A stretch of DNA of 51,861 nucleotides from Candidatus Limnocylindria bacterium. Its GTDB lineage: Bacteria > Chloroflexota > Limnocylindria > P2-11E. The notes under the pieces were generated by a model, which had not been told where the DNA came from, ran no database searches, and saw only the letters and a list, made by a program, of their open reading frames with translations. The stretch spans positions 1 through 51,861 of the forward strand of contig DATDNP010000083.1 in assembly GCA_036518215.1 (NCBI GenBank), written 5' to 3'. The first letter of the stretch is position 1, and each line of letters begins with the position of its first letter. This document shows positions 9,740 to 42,867 of the stretch, one piece after another. Both the position numbers and the translations under genes were made by a program.

Positions 9740-9840
9740 CTTTCATCCAGAGAGGCTGAGGGAACGGCCCGATGACGCCTCGGCAACCGGCGGAGACCCG
9801 CAGTGGTGCCAACTCCGGCCCGACAAGGGAAAGATGAGAG
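9740..9840 (+). ncRNA. SAM-I (S-box) riboswitch
   Basis: CTTTCATCCAGAGAGG-CTGAGGGA-ACGGCCC-GATGACGCC-TCGGCAACC...GGTGCCAACTCC...AAGATGAGAG matches the S-box consensus. P1 is 9740-9747 paired with 9833-9840. It lies upstream of metF and metE. Confidence 0.94.
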
Positions 9841-37927: not shown

Positions 37928-37955
37928 GAGAGCCCCGAGCGAACTCGGGGCTCTC
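37928..37955. terminator. Strong hairpin between convergent genes (probable gltA terminator)
   Basis: Perfect 12-bp stem GAGAGCCCCGAG-CGAA-CTCGGGGCTCTC, giving a UUCG loop on the minus strand. Confidence 0.8.
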
Positions 37956-37979
37956 GTTCGATGACGGTGTGCGGGCGCG

Positions 37980-39146
37980 TCAGCGCTCGGCGATCGGGAT
38001 GAACTTCTTGCCCATCGGTCCCGTGTACTCGGACTCGGGGCGGATGAGCCGGTTGTCGGCGTGCTGCTCCATGATGTGCGCGCACCAGCCGCTGATGCGG
38101 CCCACCGAGAAGAGCGAGGTGCCGAGGTCCGCGGGGATCCCGAGGAACGTGTACGTCGTCGCGGCGAAGAAGTCGACGTTCACGATGTTCACCTTCGCGG
38201 CCGCGGCGGGCGACATCTTCGGGCGGCGCTCGGCGATCGCCTGCACGAGCTTCTCCTGGATGTCGTAGTACTTCGGGCCCTTCCAGTCCTTCTGCAGCTC
38301 GCCGGCGAACTTGCGGAGGAACTTCGCCCGCGGGTCCTCGGTCTTGTACACGCGGTGACCGAAGCCCGAGAACTTGTACTTGCGCTCGATGGCCTTGTCG
38401 ACCCATGCGTCGACGTGCTCGGGCGAGCCGATCTCGTCGAGCATCTTCATCGTCCCGTCGGTGGCACCGCCGTGGAGCGGACCCTTGAGCGCGCCGAACG
38501 CGGCGGTGACGCTCGCGTGCATGTCCGCCTCGGTGGCCGCGACGATGCGGGCCGTGAAGGTCGAGGCGTTGAGACCGTGCTCCGCCTGGAGGATGAAGCA
38601 TGTGTTCAGGATCTCGGCGGCGCGCGGGTGGGCCTCGTCGATGCCGGCCATGCGCGCGAAGTTCGCGGCGTGGCCGAGGGCTGGGTCGGGCGGAACGGGC
38701 TGCTCGCCCTTGCGCCGGCGGATGTATGTCGCGAGGATCGTCGGGAGCTTCGCGGTGAGCCGGATCGACTTGCGGTACTCGGCCTCGCGCGAGTTGTCCC
38801 CCTCGGCGGGGTCCTCGACCGCCGCGGCGGACACGACCGTGCGGAGCACGTCCATCGCCGTGCCCGATTCGGACATCTCGAGGAGGATCTGGCGGAGGAA
38901 CGGCGACAGTGCGCGGTGCTTCGTCAGCTCTGCCTTGAAGTCCCGGAGCTGCTCCTTGTTCGGAAGATCGCCATTGAGCAGGAGATAGGCGACCTCCTCG
39001 TATTCGGCCTTCGTGGCGAGCTCCTCGATCGGGTATCCGCGGTAGACGAGGAGGTTGTCCTCGACCTTGCAGATGGCGGTCGAGGCGGCCACGACGCCTT
39101 CGAGACCGCGTGGGGATGCGGCAGGCGCCGCTTTTTCAGTAGTCAT
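37980..39146 (-). CDS. gltA: Citrate synthase / 2-methylcitrate synthase
   Basis: GLEGVVA, YRGY, AEHGLNASTF, LKGPLHGGA, GFGHRVYKTEDPR, NVDFF and RISGWCAH. Confidence 0.95.
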   Translation of the reverse strand: MTTEKAAPAASPRGLEGVVAASTAICKVEDNLLVYRGYPIEELATKAEYEEVAYLLLNGDLPNKEQLRDFKAELTKHRALSPFLRQILLEMSESGTAMDVLRTVVSAAAVEDPAEGDNSREAEYRKSIRLTAKLPTILATYIRRRKGEQPVPPDPALGHAANFARMAGIDEAHPRAAEILNTCFILQAEHGLNASTFTARIVAATEADMHASVTAAFGALKGPLHGGATDGTMKMLDEIGSPEHVDAWVDKAIERKYKFSGFGHRVYKTEDPRAKFLRKFAGELQKDWKGPKYYDIQEKLVQAIAERRPKMSPAAAAKVNIVNVDFFAATTYTFLGIPADLGTSLFSVGRISGWCAHIMEQHADNRLIRPESEYTGPMGKKFIPIAER

Positions 39147-39201
39147 GTGGCCGAGTGTGGCATAGCGGTGTCACCCGGCTGCTAGTGCCCTTACGACCCT
39201 C

Positions 39202-39230
39202 TTGCGCGGGTCATTCGGCGAGCGTACAGT
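39202..39230 (+). promoter_or_regulatory. Sigma70-type promoter
   Basis: TTGCGC(39202-39207)-N17-TACAGT(39225-39230). Confidence 0.7.
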
Positions 39231-39236
39231 CCCGCG

Positions 39237-39390
39237 AACACGGTCACTCGCTGCTAAACACTTCAGGGAGGACGAAACAAAGGACCGGCCCCGCGCGTTA
39301 CATGCGCGGGGGTGCCTTTCTCAACGAAAGCCCCTCATCCCACCCACCAGCGGAGGGCGGCGGCCGAAGGGCCGGCGCCCTTTCGCTTTC
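39237..39390 (+). ncRNA. Candidate structured RNA (6S-like RNA or cis-acting attenuator)
   Basis: Bounded by the promoter and a terminator. GTCACTCGCTG pairs with CAGCGGAGGGC. Central bubble CTAAACACTTCA/ACCCAC, GGGA/TCCC upper stem, internal hairpins. Confidence 0.5.
39355..39390 (+). terminator. Intrinsic terminator
   Basis: GGGCG-G-CGGCC-GAAG-GGCCG-G-CGCCC followed by TTTCGCTTTC. Confidence 0.7.
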
Positions 39391-39430
39391 TAGCGCCGTT
39401 TCGTTCGCTATCTTGCGCGTTGAGAGGGAA

Positions 39431-40513
39431 GTGAAGGTTATCCCGGCGGCGCGCGAGCGCCGCGCTCCCGTTTCGCGAGAGCGCTACCGCGCCGTCGCGC
39501 GGCAGAGCGGGCTGGCGGCGCGCCTGCGACGGCGGCCGCAGCTCGAGCTGGCGATCCTCGCCTTGGCGGCGCTCTTCATGGTCGCCGTTGCCCCGCGGCT
39601 CACCGACGTCGTTGTCTCGGGGCTCGCCTCGCTCGGCACGAGCCTCACGCAGCTCGGGTCGTCGGACCAGGGGAACCGCTCGATCGATCTCCCGAGCGGC
39701 GGCGGCACGGTGACCGCGGCGCCGGTCGCGGCGGGACTTCCGGACTTCACGAACCAGTCCGCGCTCACCGTGAACGGCCAGGTGCCCGAGTTCGCGCTCG
39801 CGGCCGGCCGCACGGTCGACGTATCGCTGAACGGCACGTCGGTCGGGACGCTCACGCCGGACCCGAGCGGCGCGTTCTCCACCACGCTCACGCTCCGCGA
39901 TGGATCGAACGCCATCGTGCTCACGCTCCGCTCGGGTACCGACACGGTGGCGTCGTCCTCATACGTCGTCGTGCTCGACCGCCAGCCGCCGACGCTCACG
40001 GTGACGAAGCCGGCCGCCGGCGCGACGATCGACGGCCCGGACGTCACTGTCGAGGGAAAGGCGGACGTCGGCACGACGGTGACGGTGAACGACCGCACGG
40101 TGCTCTCCGCGCAGGACGGGACGTTCACGACGACGTTCAGCGCGACGGCCGGCCCGCAGACGATCACGATCGTCGGGACCGATCGCGCCGGCAACAAGAC
40201 GACCACGAAGATCGACGTCACCGTCCGCGACGCGGCCGCGTCGGCGCTCCTCGTGACCGTCGTCCTCGATCCGGCGACGGTCGCGCCCGGCGCGCAGACG
40301 ATCGCGACGGTGCGCGTCACCGCGAACGGGACGCCGAGGGTCGCTCAGCTCGTCACGCTCCTCGTCGGTCTCTACACGGTCGGCTCGTTCCGTACCGACG
40401 CGAACGGCGTCGCGCGGATCGGCTTCGCCGCGCCGCCGAACGTCGGCGATGCCGTCGTCCTCGTGCTGACGGACGGCGCGAGCGGTCGGGCGACGCTCAC
40501 CGTCGCCAAATGA
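39431..40513 (+). CDS. Membrane-anchored protein with extracellular Ig-like domains
   Basis: GAGAGG precedes GTG. Arg-rich N-terminus, one TM segment, then Thr/Val-rich beta domains (DRQPPTLTV, VEGKAD.GTTVTVN, GTDRAGNKTT). Confidence 0.8.
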   Translation: MKVIPAARERRAPVSRERYRAVARQSGLAARLRRRPQLELAILALAALFMVAVAPRLTDVVVSGLASLGTSLTQLGSSDQGNRSIDLPSGGGTVTAAPVAAGLPDFTNQSALTVNGQVPEFALAAGRTVDVSLNGTSVGTLTPDPSGAFSTTLTLRDGSNAIVLTLRSGTDTVASSSYVVVLDRQPPTLTVTKPAAGATIDGPDVTVEGKADVGTTVTVNDRTVLSAQDGTFTTTFSATAGPQTITIVGTDRAGNKTTTKIDVTVRDAAASALLVTVVLDPATVAPGAQTIATVRVTANGTPRVAQLVTLLVGLYTVGSFRTDANGVARIGFAAPPNVGDAVVLVLTDGASGRATLTVAK

Positions 40514-40529: not shown

Positions 40530-42158
40530 GTGACGCAGGCCGATCTCGTCCTCTTCTCGATCCTCGGCGGCACGGCCCTGCTCCTCTACGGCGTCCGTCT
40601 CGTCGGCGAGGGTCTGCAGCGCGCCGCCGGCACGCGCCTCCGGCACGTCCTCTCGACGCTCACGGGAAACCGCTTCAAGGCGCTGCTCGTCGGCGCGGGC
40701 GTGACGGCCGTCCTGCAGTCGTCGTCCGCGACGACGGTGATGCTCGTCGGATTCGCGTCGGCCGGGCTCCTCTCGCTGCGACAGACGATCGGCGTCATCC
40801 TCGGTGCGGACGTCGGCACGACGGTCACCGTCCAGCTCCTCGCGTTCGACCTGCTCTCGCTCTCGCCCCTCGTCGTCTTCAGCGGGTGGCTCCTGTGGGC
40901 GACGACGAAGGGGACGCCGAAGTACGTCGGTCAGGCGATCCTCGGGTTCGGATTCCTCTTCCTCGGCATGAAGCTCGTCGCCGACGGCACGGCGCCGCTC
41001 GAGCAGAGCGCGCTCTTCCGCGATCTCCTCGCCGCGCTCACCAACCAGCCGCTCATCCTGCTCATCATCGCGGCCGCGTTCTGCGGCCTCGTCCGCTCGA
41101 GCGCCGCGACGATCGGACTCGCGCTGTCGCTCGCCGCGGCCGGCATCCTGCCCCTCGCGGGCGCCATTCCGATCATCTTCGGCGCGAACATCGGCACCGC
41201 CGTGACGGCGCTCCTCGCGGCCATCGGACAGAACGCCGAGGCGCGACGGGTCGCCGCCGCGCACGCCGTCTTCAAGGTCATCGGTGTCGCGCTGTTCTAT
41301 CCGTTCATGGCGCCGTTCGCCGATCTCGTATCGCGGACCGCGCCGGACGTGCAGCGCCAGATCGCGAACGCGCACAGCATCTTCAACATCATCGTCGCCG
41401 CGGTCTTCCTGCCCACGAGCGCCGTTGCCGCCGAGTTCTTCACGCGCCTGATCCCCGAGCGCGAAGGCCCGTCCACCGGCGCGATGTACCTGAATCCGCA
41501 GACGCTCGACACGCCCGCCGTCGCGCTCGGCCAGGCGCTGCGCGAGACGCTGCGCATGGGCGACGTCGTCGTCGGGTCGCTGCGCGACACGCTCGTCGTG
41601 CTCGAGCGTAACGACGAGAACCTGCTGCGGCAGCTGGTCGCTCGCGACGACCTCATCGATCGCCTCGAGGAGGACATCAAGACGTTCCTCATCGGTCTCT
41701 CGGTGCAGTCGCTCACCGAGGAACAGGCGGAGCGCGAGACGGCGCTCATCTTCGTCATCGCGAACCTCGAGGAGATCGGCGATGTCATCGAGAAGAACCT
41801 CCTCGAGCTTGCCCAGAAGAAGATCGATGGCGGGCATGTGTTCAGCGCGCAGGGCTGGGCCGAGATCACCGACGTGCACACGAAGGTCGTCGAGAACCTC
41901 GAGCTCGCGATGTCCGCGCTCGCGGCGCAGGACCGCCTCATCGCCGAGAAGGTCATCCGCCACAAGACGCGGATCAACGAGATGGAGCGCGAGTACCGGC
42001 AGACGCACATCGACCGGCTGCACTCGGGCCTCCGCGAATCGATCGACACCTCGAGCATCCACCTCGACCTGCTCGCGAACCTGAAGCGCGCGAACTCGCT
42101 CGCAGCCGGTATCGCGTACGCGGTGCTCGGGCGGCACGCGGTCAATGGGGAAAGCTAG
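40530..42158 (+). CDS. Na/Pi cotransporter family protein with PhoU-like domains
   Basis: QSSSATTVMLVGF, GADVGTT, SSAATIG and GANIGT, followed by two PhoU-like helical domains. Confidence 0.93.
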   Translation: MTQADLVLFSILGGTALLLYGVRLVGEGLQRAAGTRLRHVLSTLTGNRFKALLVGAGVTAVLQSSSATTVMLVGFASAGLLSLRQTIGVILGADVGTTVTVQLLAFDLLSLSPLVVFSGWLLWATTKGTPKYVGQAILGFGFLFLGMKLVADGTAPLEQSALFRDLLAALTNQPLILLIIAAAFCGLVRSSAATIGLALSLAAAGILPLAGAIPIIFGANIGTAVTALLAAIGQNAEARRVAAAHAVFKVIGVALFYPFMAPFADLVSRTAPDVQRQIANAHSIFNIIVAAVFLPTSAVAAEFFTRLIPEREGPSTGAMYLNPQTLDTPAVALGQALRETLRMGDVVVGSLRDTLVVLERNDENLLRQLVARDDLIDRLEEDIKTFLIGLSVQSLTEEQAERETALIFVIANLEEIGDVIEKNLLELAQKKIDGGHVFSAQGWAEITDVHTKVVENLELAMSALAAQDRLIAEKVIRHKTRINEMEREYRQTHIDRLHSGLRESIDTSSIHLDLLANLKRANSLAAGIAYAVLGRHAVNGES

Positions 42159-42867
42159 GGCGTTCGTCGGGACGTCGGGCTGGTCATACGCATCCTGGCG
42201 CCCGAAGTTCTATCCCGAGGGGATGAAGGCGAAGGACTTCCTCCGCTATTACGCCGAGCGCTTCGGCACGATCGAGATCAACTACACCTTCAATCACCTT
42301 CCCACGGAGAAGAACATCGCGGAATGGACCGCCGCGACGTCGGCTGACTTCGTGTTCGCGCTGAAGGCGTCGCAGCAGATCACGCACCGCATGCAGCTGC
42401 GCGAGCCCGCCGAGACGCTGCCGATCTTCTTCGATCGCGCGCGCCCGCTCGGGCCGCGTCTCGGCGCGGTGTTGTTCCAGACGCCGCCGTGGGTGAAGCG
42501 CGACGACGACCGGCTCGCCATGTTCCTCGCCGCGCTCCCGCGCGACGTGCGCTGCGCGCTCGAGGTGCGCGATCCATCGTGGTACGTCGACGAGGTCTAC
42601 GAGCTCTTGCGCACCGCGAACGTCGCGCTCGTGCACGCCGAGGGCGAGAAGGCGCCCTCGCCGGTCGAGACGATCGGCGCCGTCGCGTCGTTCGCCTACG
42701 TGCGCCTGCGCGCGCCGTCCGGGTACGACGAGGGCGCCGTGGACGCATGGGCGAAGCGCCTCGGCGCGATCCGCGACGCGGGGAAGGACGTCTACGCGTA
42801 CTTCCGGCACGACGAGGACGGTTCGAACGCGCTCTCGGCGATGCGGCTGCGCGACCGCCTCGCGTGA
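42145..42867 (+). CDS. DUF72 domain protein
   Basis: VGTSGWSY..W...FYP, YYAERFGTIEINYTF, FALKAS, LFQTPP, ALEVRDPSW and YVRLR. Confidence 0.93.
   Translation: MGKARAFVGTSGWSYASWRPKFYPEGMKAKDFLRYYAERFGTIEINYTFNHLPTEKNIAEWTAATSADFVFALKASQQITHRMQLREPAETLPIFFDRARPLGPRLGAVLFQTPPWVKRDDDRLAMFLAALPRDVRCALEVRDPSWYVDEVYELLRTANVALVHAEGEKAPSPVETIGAVASFAYVRLRAPSGYDEGAVDAWAKRLGAIRDAGKDVYAYFRHDEDGSNALSAMRLRDRLA

Follow-up and report, generated by a model that had tools for sequence, protein, structure and literature searches.

The DNA analyzed here, positions 1-51,861 of contig DATDNP010000083.1 (assembly GCA_036518215.1; below, the window), belongs to a bacterium of the phylum Chloroflexota, class Candidatus (Ca.) Limnocylindria. 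On its plus strand, opposite to the citrate synthase gene gltA and upstream of a gene for an immunoglobulin (Ig)-like protein of ~360 amino acids (Ig360), there is a discrete structured non-coding RNA, ~150 nt long in the window, which is strongly supported by comparison with relatives. Judged by sequence, the RNA represents a previously undescribed family, specific to Ca. Limnocylindria and of a known general kind. The reading we favor, giving it about an even chance, is that of a 5′-leader attenuator of Ig360 whose terminated product is a small RNA (sRNA), possibly with a dual role. A preliminary description, made from the letters of the window, had proposed a discrete structured RNA of ~150 nt at this place; conservation and covariation now back such an RNA, bounded by a promoter and a terminator-like hairpin.

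Anatomy of the RNA

Members of the family share a promoter, a 5′-terminal hairpin, an invariant unpaired C-rich box of 18 bases, GCCCCUCAUCCCACCCACC, and a GC hairpin of 16-17 bp (AGCGGA...UUUCGCU). They occur as long forms (~150 nt, the window copy included) and short forms (~90 nt, 18 distinct sequences); the short forms make up one third of the family, the full range is 90-155 nt, and locus L043 is intermediate in length. In the window the parts are as follows (SD, Shine-Dalgarno; MFE, minimum free energy).

39202-39207 and 39225-39230, plus strand: promoter, −35 TTGCGC and −10 TACAGT with a 17-nt spacer; read directly
39243-39273, plus strand: 5′-terminal stem-loop domain with conserved GGUCA and CUAAAC (39254-39259); MFE fold
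39266-39278, plus strand: SD-like box (G)GGGAGGACGAAAC, shared without change by the long forms, lacking in the short forms; alignment
39279-39319, plus strand: variable GC hairpin P2 (AAAGG..CCCCGCGCGU-UAC-AUGCGCGGGG..CCUUU); fold
39330-39348, plus strand: invariant C-rich box GCCCCUCAUCCCACCCACC, predicted to be a single strand; we propose it as a site of recognition or a seed
39349-39387, plus strand: 3′ hairpin AGCGGA-GGGCG-g-CGGCC GAAG GGCCG-g-CGCCC-U-UUCGCU, a helix of 16 pairs; 61 distinct sequences folded
39388-39430, plus strand: spacer to Ig360, with the SD GAGAGGGA at 39422-39429; direct reading

A short form runs from a 5-bp 5′ hairpin through ACU(A/G)AAC and 4-7 nt to the box, (A)GCCCCUCAUCCCACCCACC, and on to the 16-17-bp hairpin AGCGGA-GGGCG-n-CGGCC...GGCCG-n-CGCCC-U-UUCGCU; it folds as two separate hairpins, with no pairing between its 5′ and 3′ parts. 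In the long forms the 5′ stem spans the CUAAAC motif, and between CUAAAC and the box there is an insert made of the invariant GGGGAGGACGAAAC and the variable GC hairpin P2. The sequence of P2 varies by lineage (the MAFFT alignment is unreliable over this part), some hairpin is always there, and a near-invariant GCGUU lies in or beside its loop. Two hairpins can be read directly in the window, CCCCGCGC-N7-GCGCGGGG at 39289-39311 and CTTTC-N5-GAAAG at 39316-39330, both of them where the preliminary description had put them. The 5′ domain of the window folds as GUCaCUCgCUG / CAGgGAGGAC (MFE); this domain is diverged and weaker in the window and in its closest relative, L001, with GUCaCUC pairing to GAGGAC of the SD-like box. 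A pseudoknot between the 5′-hairpin loop and the tail, as well as a small CUGA/UCAG hairpin, could be drawn in some members only, not consistently.

The predicted probability that the C-rich box is unpaired is 0.90 in the window RNA, 0.75 in the short forms and 0.51 in the long forms. The lower accessibility in long than in short forms is explained by the SD-like GGGGAGGA of the long forms, which is complementary to the box; every column of this pairing is invariant, so that covariation has no bearing on it. The complementarity hints that natural partners of the box may be G-rich and SD-like. RNAalifold applied to the MAFFT long-form alignment yields only the 3′ hairpin and the pairing of the SD-like box with UCaUCCcaCCC.

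Conservation among relatives

Loci were fetched through close relatives of the citrate synthase, one genome per species. Forty-nine of the gltA loci obtained are from Chloroflexota, mostly labelled Ca. Limnocylindria, with 68-89% identity of the citrate synthase protein. We found the element in 45 of them; two of the other four are interrupted by contig ends, and L040 and L042 have neither the RNA nor Ig360. Compared with the window, the core (39329-39389) is 91.5-100% identical in the 45 genomes (median 95%), while the identity of the flanking DNA is 80% for gltA (median), 78% for the gene of a sodium/phosphate (Na/Pi) transporter and 67% for Ig360.

The 16-mer CCUCAUCCCACCCACC is present exactly in all 45 gltA-anchored loci that carry the element. 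The exact box is also found in all four loci reached through divergent Ig360 homologues, a route that makes no use of the RNA sequence. When metagenome contigs were scanned with CCUCAUCCCACCCACC, ~20 further true members came to light, besides many chance matches; with the 16-mer as bait, this set is biased towards invariance by construction. A covariance model built from the short forms, R1, gives one match per locus, and in the whole window a single match (39301-39390, 78.9 bits).

Some labels in this collection are of note. The loci L040 and L042 (gltA 72%) are labelled Actinomycetota and Gaiellaceae. The same locus as in the window was seen in L010, L014 and L036, metagenome-assembled genomes with the labels Ca. 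Udaeobacter, Bathyarchaeia and Saccharimonadales; mis-binning of the contigs is probable.

Covariation

The fold of the window RNA compared with shuffled sequences gives z = −3.1, a moderate value and weak evidence for the window alone; we regard the promoter and hairpin features as real because they are conserved in relatives. In the short forms, aligned by fitting to R1, 10 of 20 pairs change on both sides, 91% of the cells pair as against 40-60% with the partners slid, and none of 500 shuffles reaches the observed covariation values. Helix P1 of the long forms, in a plain MAFFT alignment not fitted to structure, has changes on both sides in 5 of 6 pairs, with 83% of the cells pairing as against 27-42% with the partner slid; its variants include CAGGG/CCCUG, GGACGG/CCGUCC and GCGGAG/CUCCGC. 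The covarying 5-bp hairpin of the short forms is at the position equivalent to P1. We relied on these two alignments rather than on a model-fitted alignment of 61 sequences, which forces helix 1 onto the differing hairpins of the long forms.

The 3′ hairpin pairs in 98.8% of the cells among 61 distinct sequences, with compensatory changes at 6 pairs. Further compensation was seen in L024, L025, L039 and L201: the base of the hairpin is AGUGAGA/UCUUGCU in L039, AGCGAGA/UCUCGCU in L201 and GCGGAU/GUUCGC in L024, where the upper stem is wholly different. Both the 5′ and the 3′ hairpin thus covary in orthologous regions, the comparison that had been recommended at the outset. The functional strand is the plus strand, because the G·U pairs would read A·C on the other one.

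The pairing of the RNA ends proposed earlier, GTCACTCGCTG with CAGCGGAGGGC, did not survive this comparison: 60% of the cells pair, there is no covariation, and in relatives 7 of the 10 pairs are disrupted more often than not. The stem-bubble-stem layout was built on this non-conserved pairing and falls with it. The GGGA/UCCC closure of the supposed bubble does pair in 96% of the sequences; both its sides are invariant, and covariation cannot bear on it.

Promoter and transcript start

The promoter TTGCGC-N17-TACAGT is present where it had been predicted, and 62 of 63 distinct family members have a promoter of the same form and spacing, TTGnnn-N16-18-TA(C/A/T)A(G/T)T, placed 22-24 nt before the CU(A/G)AAC motif; in the short forms it is TTGACG/TACAGT. 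By its sequence this is a conserved sigma-70-type promoter belonging to the RNA itself, and the transcript probably starts near A39237. The spacing being constant, the first hairpin would begin at +1 to +2 of the transcript. Generic consensus scanners flagged neither the promoter, the −35 element of which has 3 of 6 consensus matches, nor the terminator, the stem of which has an internal G·G mismatch.

The divergent gene is close by. The start codon of gltA is only ~20 nt from the −35 element of the RNA in many relatives (L010, L012, L020, L030, L032 and others), with a conserved (T)(A/G)GGACTTGC at the junction of gltA and the RNA promoter, and no SD is visible ahead of gltA (window 39147-39201). 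With these distances the divergent promoters must overlap, or else gltA is leaderless.

The 3′ hairpin as a possible terminator

A strong GC hairpin is universal in the family, and UUUCGCU follows its inner stem in most members. In the window, the inner stem-loop (39355-39380) and the UUUCGCUUUCU after it (39381-39391) can be read directly and look like an intrinsic terminator. A candidate bidirectional terminator at 37928-37962, between the convergent polysaccharide-deacetylase and gltA genes, offers a comparison within the same genome: it has a 12-bp GC stem, GAGAGCCCCGAG-CGAA-CUCGGGGCUCUC, flanks GAACG/CGUUC that extend the pairing, and almost no U-tract. Its U-tract is even poorer than that of the 3′ hairpin of the RNA, and the build is otherwise the same. 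This suggests that terminators of this genome are U-poor; the 3′ hairpin is credible as a terminator because its build matches that of the presumed gltA terminator.

The spacer behind the hairpin contains, at 39392-39409 and in the window only, a partial second copy, AGCGCCGUUUCGUUCGCU, of the hairpin 3′ arm (GGCGCCCUUUCGCU, 39374-39387). The copy is followed by AUCUUGCGCG, which in L001 and L044 comes directly after the hairpin. The repeat looks like a ~22-nt tandem duplication private to the window genome; through it, the 5′ arm of the hairpin could have a second partner to pair with.

Transcription

The region is transcribed and is present in metatranscriptomes. Sequence words of the element occur in at least 30 runs that carry the label of an RNA library, a label that is tentative for several; nearly all the runs are from soil or rhizosphere. 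Among the assembled contigs, those of X2 (78-99 nt) are confined to the RNA, and one of 151 nt in X31 begins 11 nt downstream of the predicted start and ends 16 nt beyond the hairpin; contigs of X1, X3, X4 and X33 continue past the hairpin and reach or approach the coding sequence. A contig of the oligo-dT run X35 includes the 5′ half of the RNA and extends past the promoter by 70 nt; it may represent an antisense transcript, a transcript with the gltA 5′-untranslated region (5′-UTR), or DNA.

Linkage to Ig360

The genes surrounding the RNA in the window are the following.

39147-39430: intergenic gap between gltA and the 360-amino-acid gene
37980-39146, minus strand: gltA, citrate synthase (Pfam Citrate_synt, E = 4e-119)
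39431-40513, plus strand: Ig360 (Pfam Glucodextran_B), membrane-anchored Ig-like protein of ~360 amino acids
40530-42158: Na/Pi-cotransporter with PhoU domains, usually next after Ig360
42145-42867: DUF72 gene, after the Na/Pi-cotransporter-PhoU gene

In the window, and likewise in each of the 45 genome loci with an Ig360 gene, in all four protein-anchored loci and in every evaluable metagenome match, Ig360 is encoded on the strand of the RNA and begins 20-120 nt after it. The pair persists in L002 and L003, where gltA is 1.5 kb away, and the two gltA loci without Ig360 (L040 and L042) are those without the RNA. Among ~70 instances no second genomic context was found. The sequence of the 20-120-nt spacers is not conserved, and they are too short and too variable for a separate promoter. 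We found no conserved Ig360 promoter besides that of the RNA; only some lineages have a TATCTT or TATGGT behind the hairpin, and it lacks a −35 element.

In L203 (2622-3526), two cyclic nucleotide monophosphate (cNMP)-binding proteins and an adenylate/guanylate cyclase-AAA-TPR gene replace the Na/Pi-cotransporter after Ig360. Since L203 keeps the RNA and Ig360 together despite these other neighbors, the conserved unit is the RNA-Ig360 pair rather than the whole cluster.

Homologue N-termini place the start of Ig360 at GTG 39431, not at ATG 39302. The protein is predicted to have an Arg-rich cytoplasmic N-terminus, one transmembrane helix, a disordered linker and three Ig-like domains; its AlphaFold model has a pLDDT of 78, and the Foldseek matches are generic (Ig repeats of adhesins). 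All 244 Ig360 homologues are unnamed, and those with an organism named by the source are from Limnocylindria or Chloroflexota. Residues 1-36 (window 39431-39540) are strongly basic and contain a motif kept in the family, RRxPVxRDRYRAxAR, of which R16, Y19, R20, A23 and R24 are invariant in 31 sequences; the remainder of the protein evolves fast (41-55% identity). We also considered masking of the Ig360 SD by the box; as SD and start context are not conserved, a simple masking model fails.

A proposed leader attenuator releasing a small RNA

An attenuator is favored because the RNA is strictly linked to Ig360, and an attenuator that releases an sRNA because the anatomy fits a free sRNA while the genomics fits a leader. 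Transcription would start from the RNA's own sigma-70-type promoter, and the transcript would open with a protective 5′-terminal hairpin, followed by the exposed invariant box and then by the very stable GC hairpin with UUUCGCU. By default the hairpin would stop RNA polymerase or make it pause strongly, so that a stable RNA of 90-155 nt is released and the operon is kept low. A trans-acting partner may recognize both the invariant box and the 5′ arm of the hairpin next to it, and decide between stop and read-through; the released RNA may also act in trans via the same box. Termination, control of read-through and the identity of the partner are what we infer from these features.

A small molecule is a less likely partner than a protein or a G-rich RNA: recognition by a macromolecule is suggested because the box and the hairpin arm are invariant in sequence, not in structure alone. 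One could speculate further that the box and the 5′ arm form the docking site of a dedicated macromolecule, in a new kind of factor-dependent antitermination or autoregulation of a class-specific surface protein and a phosphate transporter; we consider this extension doubtful. Candidates for docking would be a KH-type or another RNA-binding protein, the Arg-rich N-terminus of Ig360, or a conserved G-rich RNA such as a segment of rRNA. The reverse complement of the box (CUGGUGGGUGGGAUGAGGGGC, window 39330-39350) loosely resembles what we take to be the universal 16S rRNA sequence at ~1168-1192 (CUGGAGGAAGGUGGGGAUGACG), a likeness that may be due to chance.

Several observations weigh against attenuation. 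The U-run is short, and the extended pairing includes it. Some lineages have a weak U-tract or none: it reads CGCUACCCCGG in L035, L048, L049 and L156 and CCCUCGCGCU in L036 and L145, and in L039 AAUUCC comes after the stem. Of the terminator claimed earlier at 39355-39390, a conserved, terminator-like hairpin stands, but several lineages have a poor U-tract or have lost it. We found no conserved antiterminator in the family; the only candidate, CCCUC/GAGGG, has 5 bp; L029 and L038 retain it by means of wobble pairs, L024 has lost it. The antiterminator suggested before, formed by the 5′ end with the 5′ arm of the terminator, is a pairing not conserved in relatives. The SD of Ig360 is not conserved either, and L001 and L039 have none. 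Transcript ends cannot be read from the Logan assembled contigs, which break at variant sites and may include DNA. Finally, the layout (5′ hairpin, unpaired invariant seed, terminator, variable insert) is equally typical of a free-standing trans-acting sRNA.

Alternative explanations

The last point introduces an alternative that seems less likely to us: a free-standing sRNA that ends at the hairpin and whose box pairs with G-rich SD-like sites in several mRNAs, in the manner of RsaE/RoxS and 6C, the proximity of Ig360 being only synteny. An own promoter, a 5′ hairpin, an unpaired invariant box beside a terminator hairpin and a length of 90-155 nt are all expected of such an RNA; its modules are retained while the insert between them varies, the complementarity of the invariant GGGGAGGA to the box suggests SD-like partners, and certain metatranscriptome contigs are RNA-sized. 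However, synteny has difficulty with a linkage to Ig360 that is exceptionless, very short-range and survives rearrangement away from gltA, and it would leave Ig360 without any conserved promoter. Targets predicted by duplex energy and exact 8-9-mers are at chance level in the 52-kb window, the only sequence to which that prediction applies, and 18 invariant bases together with an invariant hairpin arm exceed the usual needs of a seed.

It is distinctly improbable, in our estimate, that the element is a 5′-UTR structure that does not terminate transcription, with hairpins that stabilize the mRNA or tune its translation or processing, a box that binds, for example, Rho, a KH-type protein or an RNase, and no purposeful short RNA. 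The pairing does cover UUUCGCU, with compensation in L024, L039 and L201, which points to conservation of the whole hairpin and not of a free U-tract; several lineages lack a U-rich tail past the full stem, contigs cross the hairpin into coding sequence, and the 5′ hairpin at +1 to +2 resembles known 5′ stabilizers. On the other hand, the inner stem and the UUU are invariant in most members, the hairpin is similar to the presumed gltA terminator of the same genome, and a stabilizer gives no reason for an invariant single strand of 18 nt.

The preliminary description had also offered an attenuator or riboswitch for the downstream gene. The leader attenuator is the part that strict gene linkage favors; no conserved switch made of RNA only was found, and the riboswitch was not borne out. 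A riboswitch for a small molecule, with a ligand perhaps tied to phosphate or ion homeostasis and the terminator as its expression platform, is very unlikely. Such a reading could draw on the leader position, on covarying stems with invariant joining nucleotides, on the terminator-like hairpin and on the Na/Pi-cotransporter-PhoU gene after Ig360 in most loci; but all that precedes the hairpin in the short forms is a 5-bp hairpin and ~35 unpaired nt, with no pseudoknot and no conserved alternative pairing found. The most conserved part is a single strand plus the platform, the reverse of the riboswitch pattern, the Na/Pi gene gives way to cNMP-binding genes in L203, and no Rfam riboswitch model matches.

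Two further readings can be practically dismissed. A 6S RNA, a mimic of the open promoter that sequesters RNA polymerase holoenzyme and the reading preferred in the preliminary description, has in its favor the ~150 nt of the window copy and that this copy, on its own, can be drawn as stem-bubble-stem; yet there is no match to the model (RF00013) at E ≤ 10, the closing helix is neither conserved nor covarying, the ~90-nt short forms have no 5′-3′ pairing, and the RNA is tied to one gene. Coding, either by an extension of the downstream gene from ATG 39302, which is in frame with the long open reading frame 39155-40513, or by a small leader peptide across the box, is contradicted by homologues that begin at the position of GTG 39431, with ATG 39302 found in the window only, by length differences among members that are not multiples of three, with short and long forms coexisting, by invariance of the box at all three codon positions while Ig360 coding DNA is only 67% identical, and by short forms that have no start codon upstream of the box. 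The homologue N-termini accordingly exclude the gene start at ATG 39302 that had been named among the outcomes refuting an RNA here.

A CsrA-binding sponge of the CsrB/RsmZ type had been a third option of the preliminary description. The window RNA has four GGA (39267, 39270, 39282, 39352), none of them in a conserved loop, and the short forms keep one, buried in the 3′ stem; we rejected this candidate.

Comparison with known RNAs

Rfam was searched with the window, the short form L035 and the long form L012, at the gathering score and at E ≤ 10. No family reaches threshold for the element, and the matches at E ≤ 10 are noise (asX1, ar35, ilvH and STnc380, far below threshold), with no 6S, no riboswitch, no RsaE/RoxS (RF01820) and no 6C (RF01066) among them. 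The 6S and riboswitch models that had been thought worth scanning thus do not match. With 6S RNA (RF00013) the likeness is limited to the length of the window copy, as model match, closing stem and central bubble are all missing. The sole Rfam family matched in the whole window at the gathering score is elsewhere: a full-length SAM-I riboswitch (RF00162) at 9740-9840 on the plus strand, with 83.1 bits (gathering score 44.4).

In function the RNA comes closest to sRNAs with C-rich seeds (RsaE/RoxS and 6C), to sRNAs derived from leaders and to antiterminators that depend on a protein. In such antiterminators, the RAT elements read by LicT and SacY and the PyrR binding loop, an invariant leader segment next to, or overlapping with, the 5′ half of a terminator is read by a sequence-specific protein. 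The Limnocylindria box is likewise invariant and adjoins the 5′ arm of a terminator-like hairpin; unlike those elements, it is predicted to be single-stranded rather than an imperfect hairpin, and no conserved alternative hairpin was found. No gene for a PRD- or PyrR-type regulator is present in the locus of the RNA. In rnTrpL of Sinorhizobium and SreA of Listeria, premature termination in a leader gives a stable sRNA that is also active in trans. This arrangement would reconcile the sRNA-like anatomy of the Limnocylindria RNA with its strict gene linkage; the two precedents differ in that their classes of attenuator or riboswitch, and the signals of these, are known. Cyanobacterial Yfr1 (54-69 nt, box ACUCCUCACAC) is not a gene leader. 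It has the same clade-wide order of hairpin, absolutely conserved unpaired box and hairpin, but its box sequence is another one and it is shorter, whereas the Limnocylindria RNA precedes Ig360.

Among sRNAs with C-rich seeds, RsaE/RoxS of Bacillales has its own promoter and terminator; its unpaired C-rich stretches pair with ribosome-binding regions rich in G, and it acts on mRNAs of the tricarboxylic acid cycle (PMC4409812, PMC6158497). The Limnocylindria RNA is similar in being a small RNA with an unpaired C-rich stretch conserved over a whole order or class, and it usually lies beside citrate synthase. RsaE/RoxS differs in having several short C-rich loop motifs in place of one linear box of 18 nt and in not being a leader, and there is no sequence or model similarity between the two. 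The 6C sRNA (B11) of Actinobacteria, high-GC hosts, binds several mRNAs through its C-rich motifs without a known chaperone (PMC6486639). Conserved over a phylum-level group, 6C is comparable as an RNA of a high-GC host with a C-rich motif; its C-runs, however, are in two hairpin loops, whereas the Limnocylindria box is unpaired between two hairpins, and the genomic context is another one. In sRNAs with C-rich seeds the most conserved part is an accessible C-rich motif, and this also holds for the Limnocylindria RNA. In the literature searched we found no publication on the sequence or on any regulatory RNA of Limnocylindria.

Significance for Ca. Limnocylindria

Ca. Limnocylindria are abundant in soils and lakes and are uncultured; the element is the first well-supported candidate for a regulatory RNA in this class. 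The covariance model R1 could join libraries of RNA families, and its use would avoid annotating the region as empty or as the start of Ig360. As the element is more conserved than the neighboring housekeeping genes and is detectable in many soil metatranscriptomes, it may serve as a marker of the lineage and as an entry to the gene regulation of the class. A single strand of 18 nt that stays unchanged while citrate synthase falls to 68% identity implies a partner conserved along with it.

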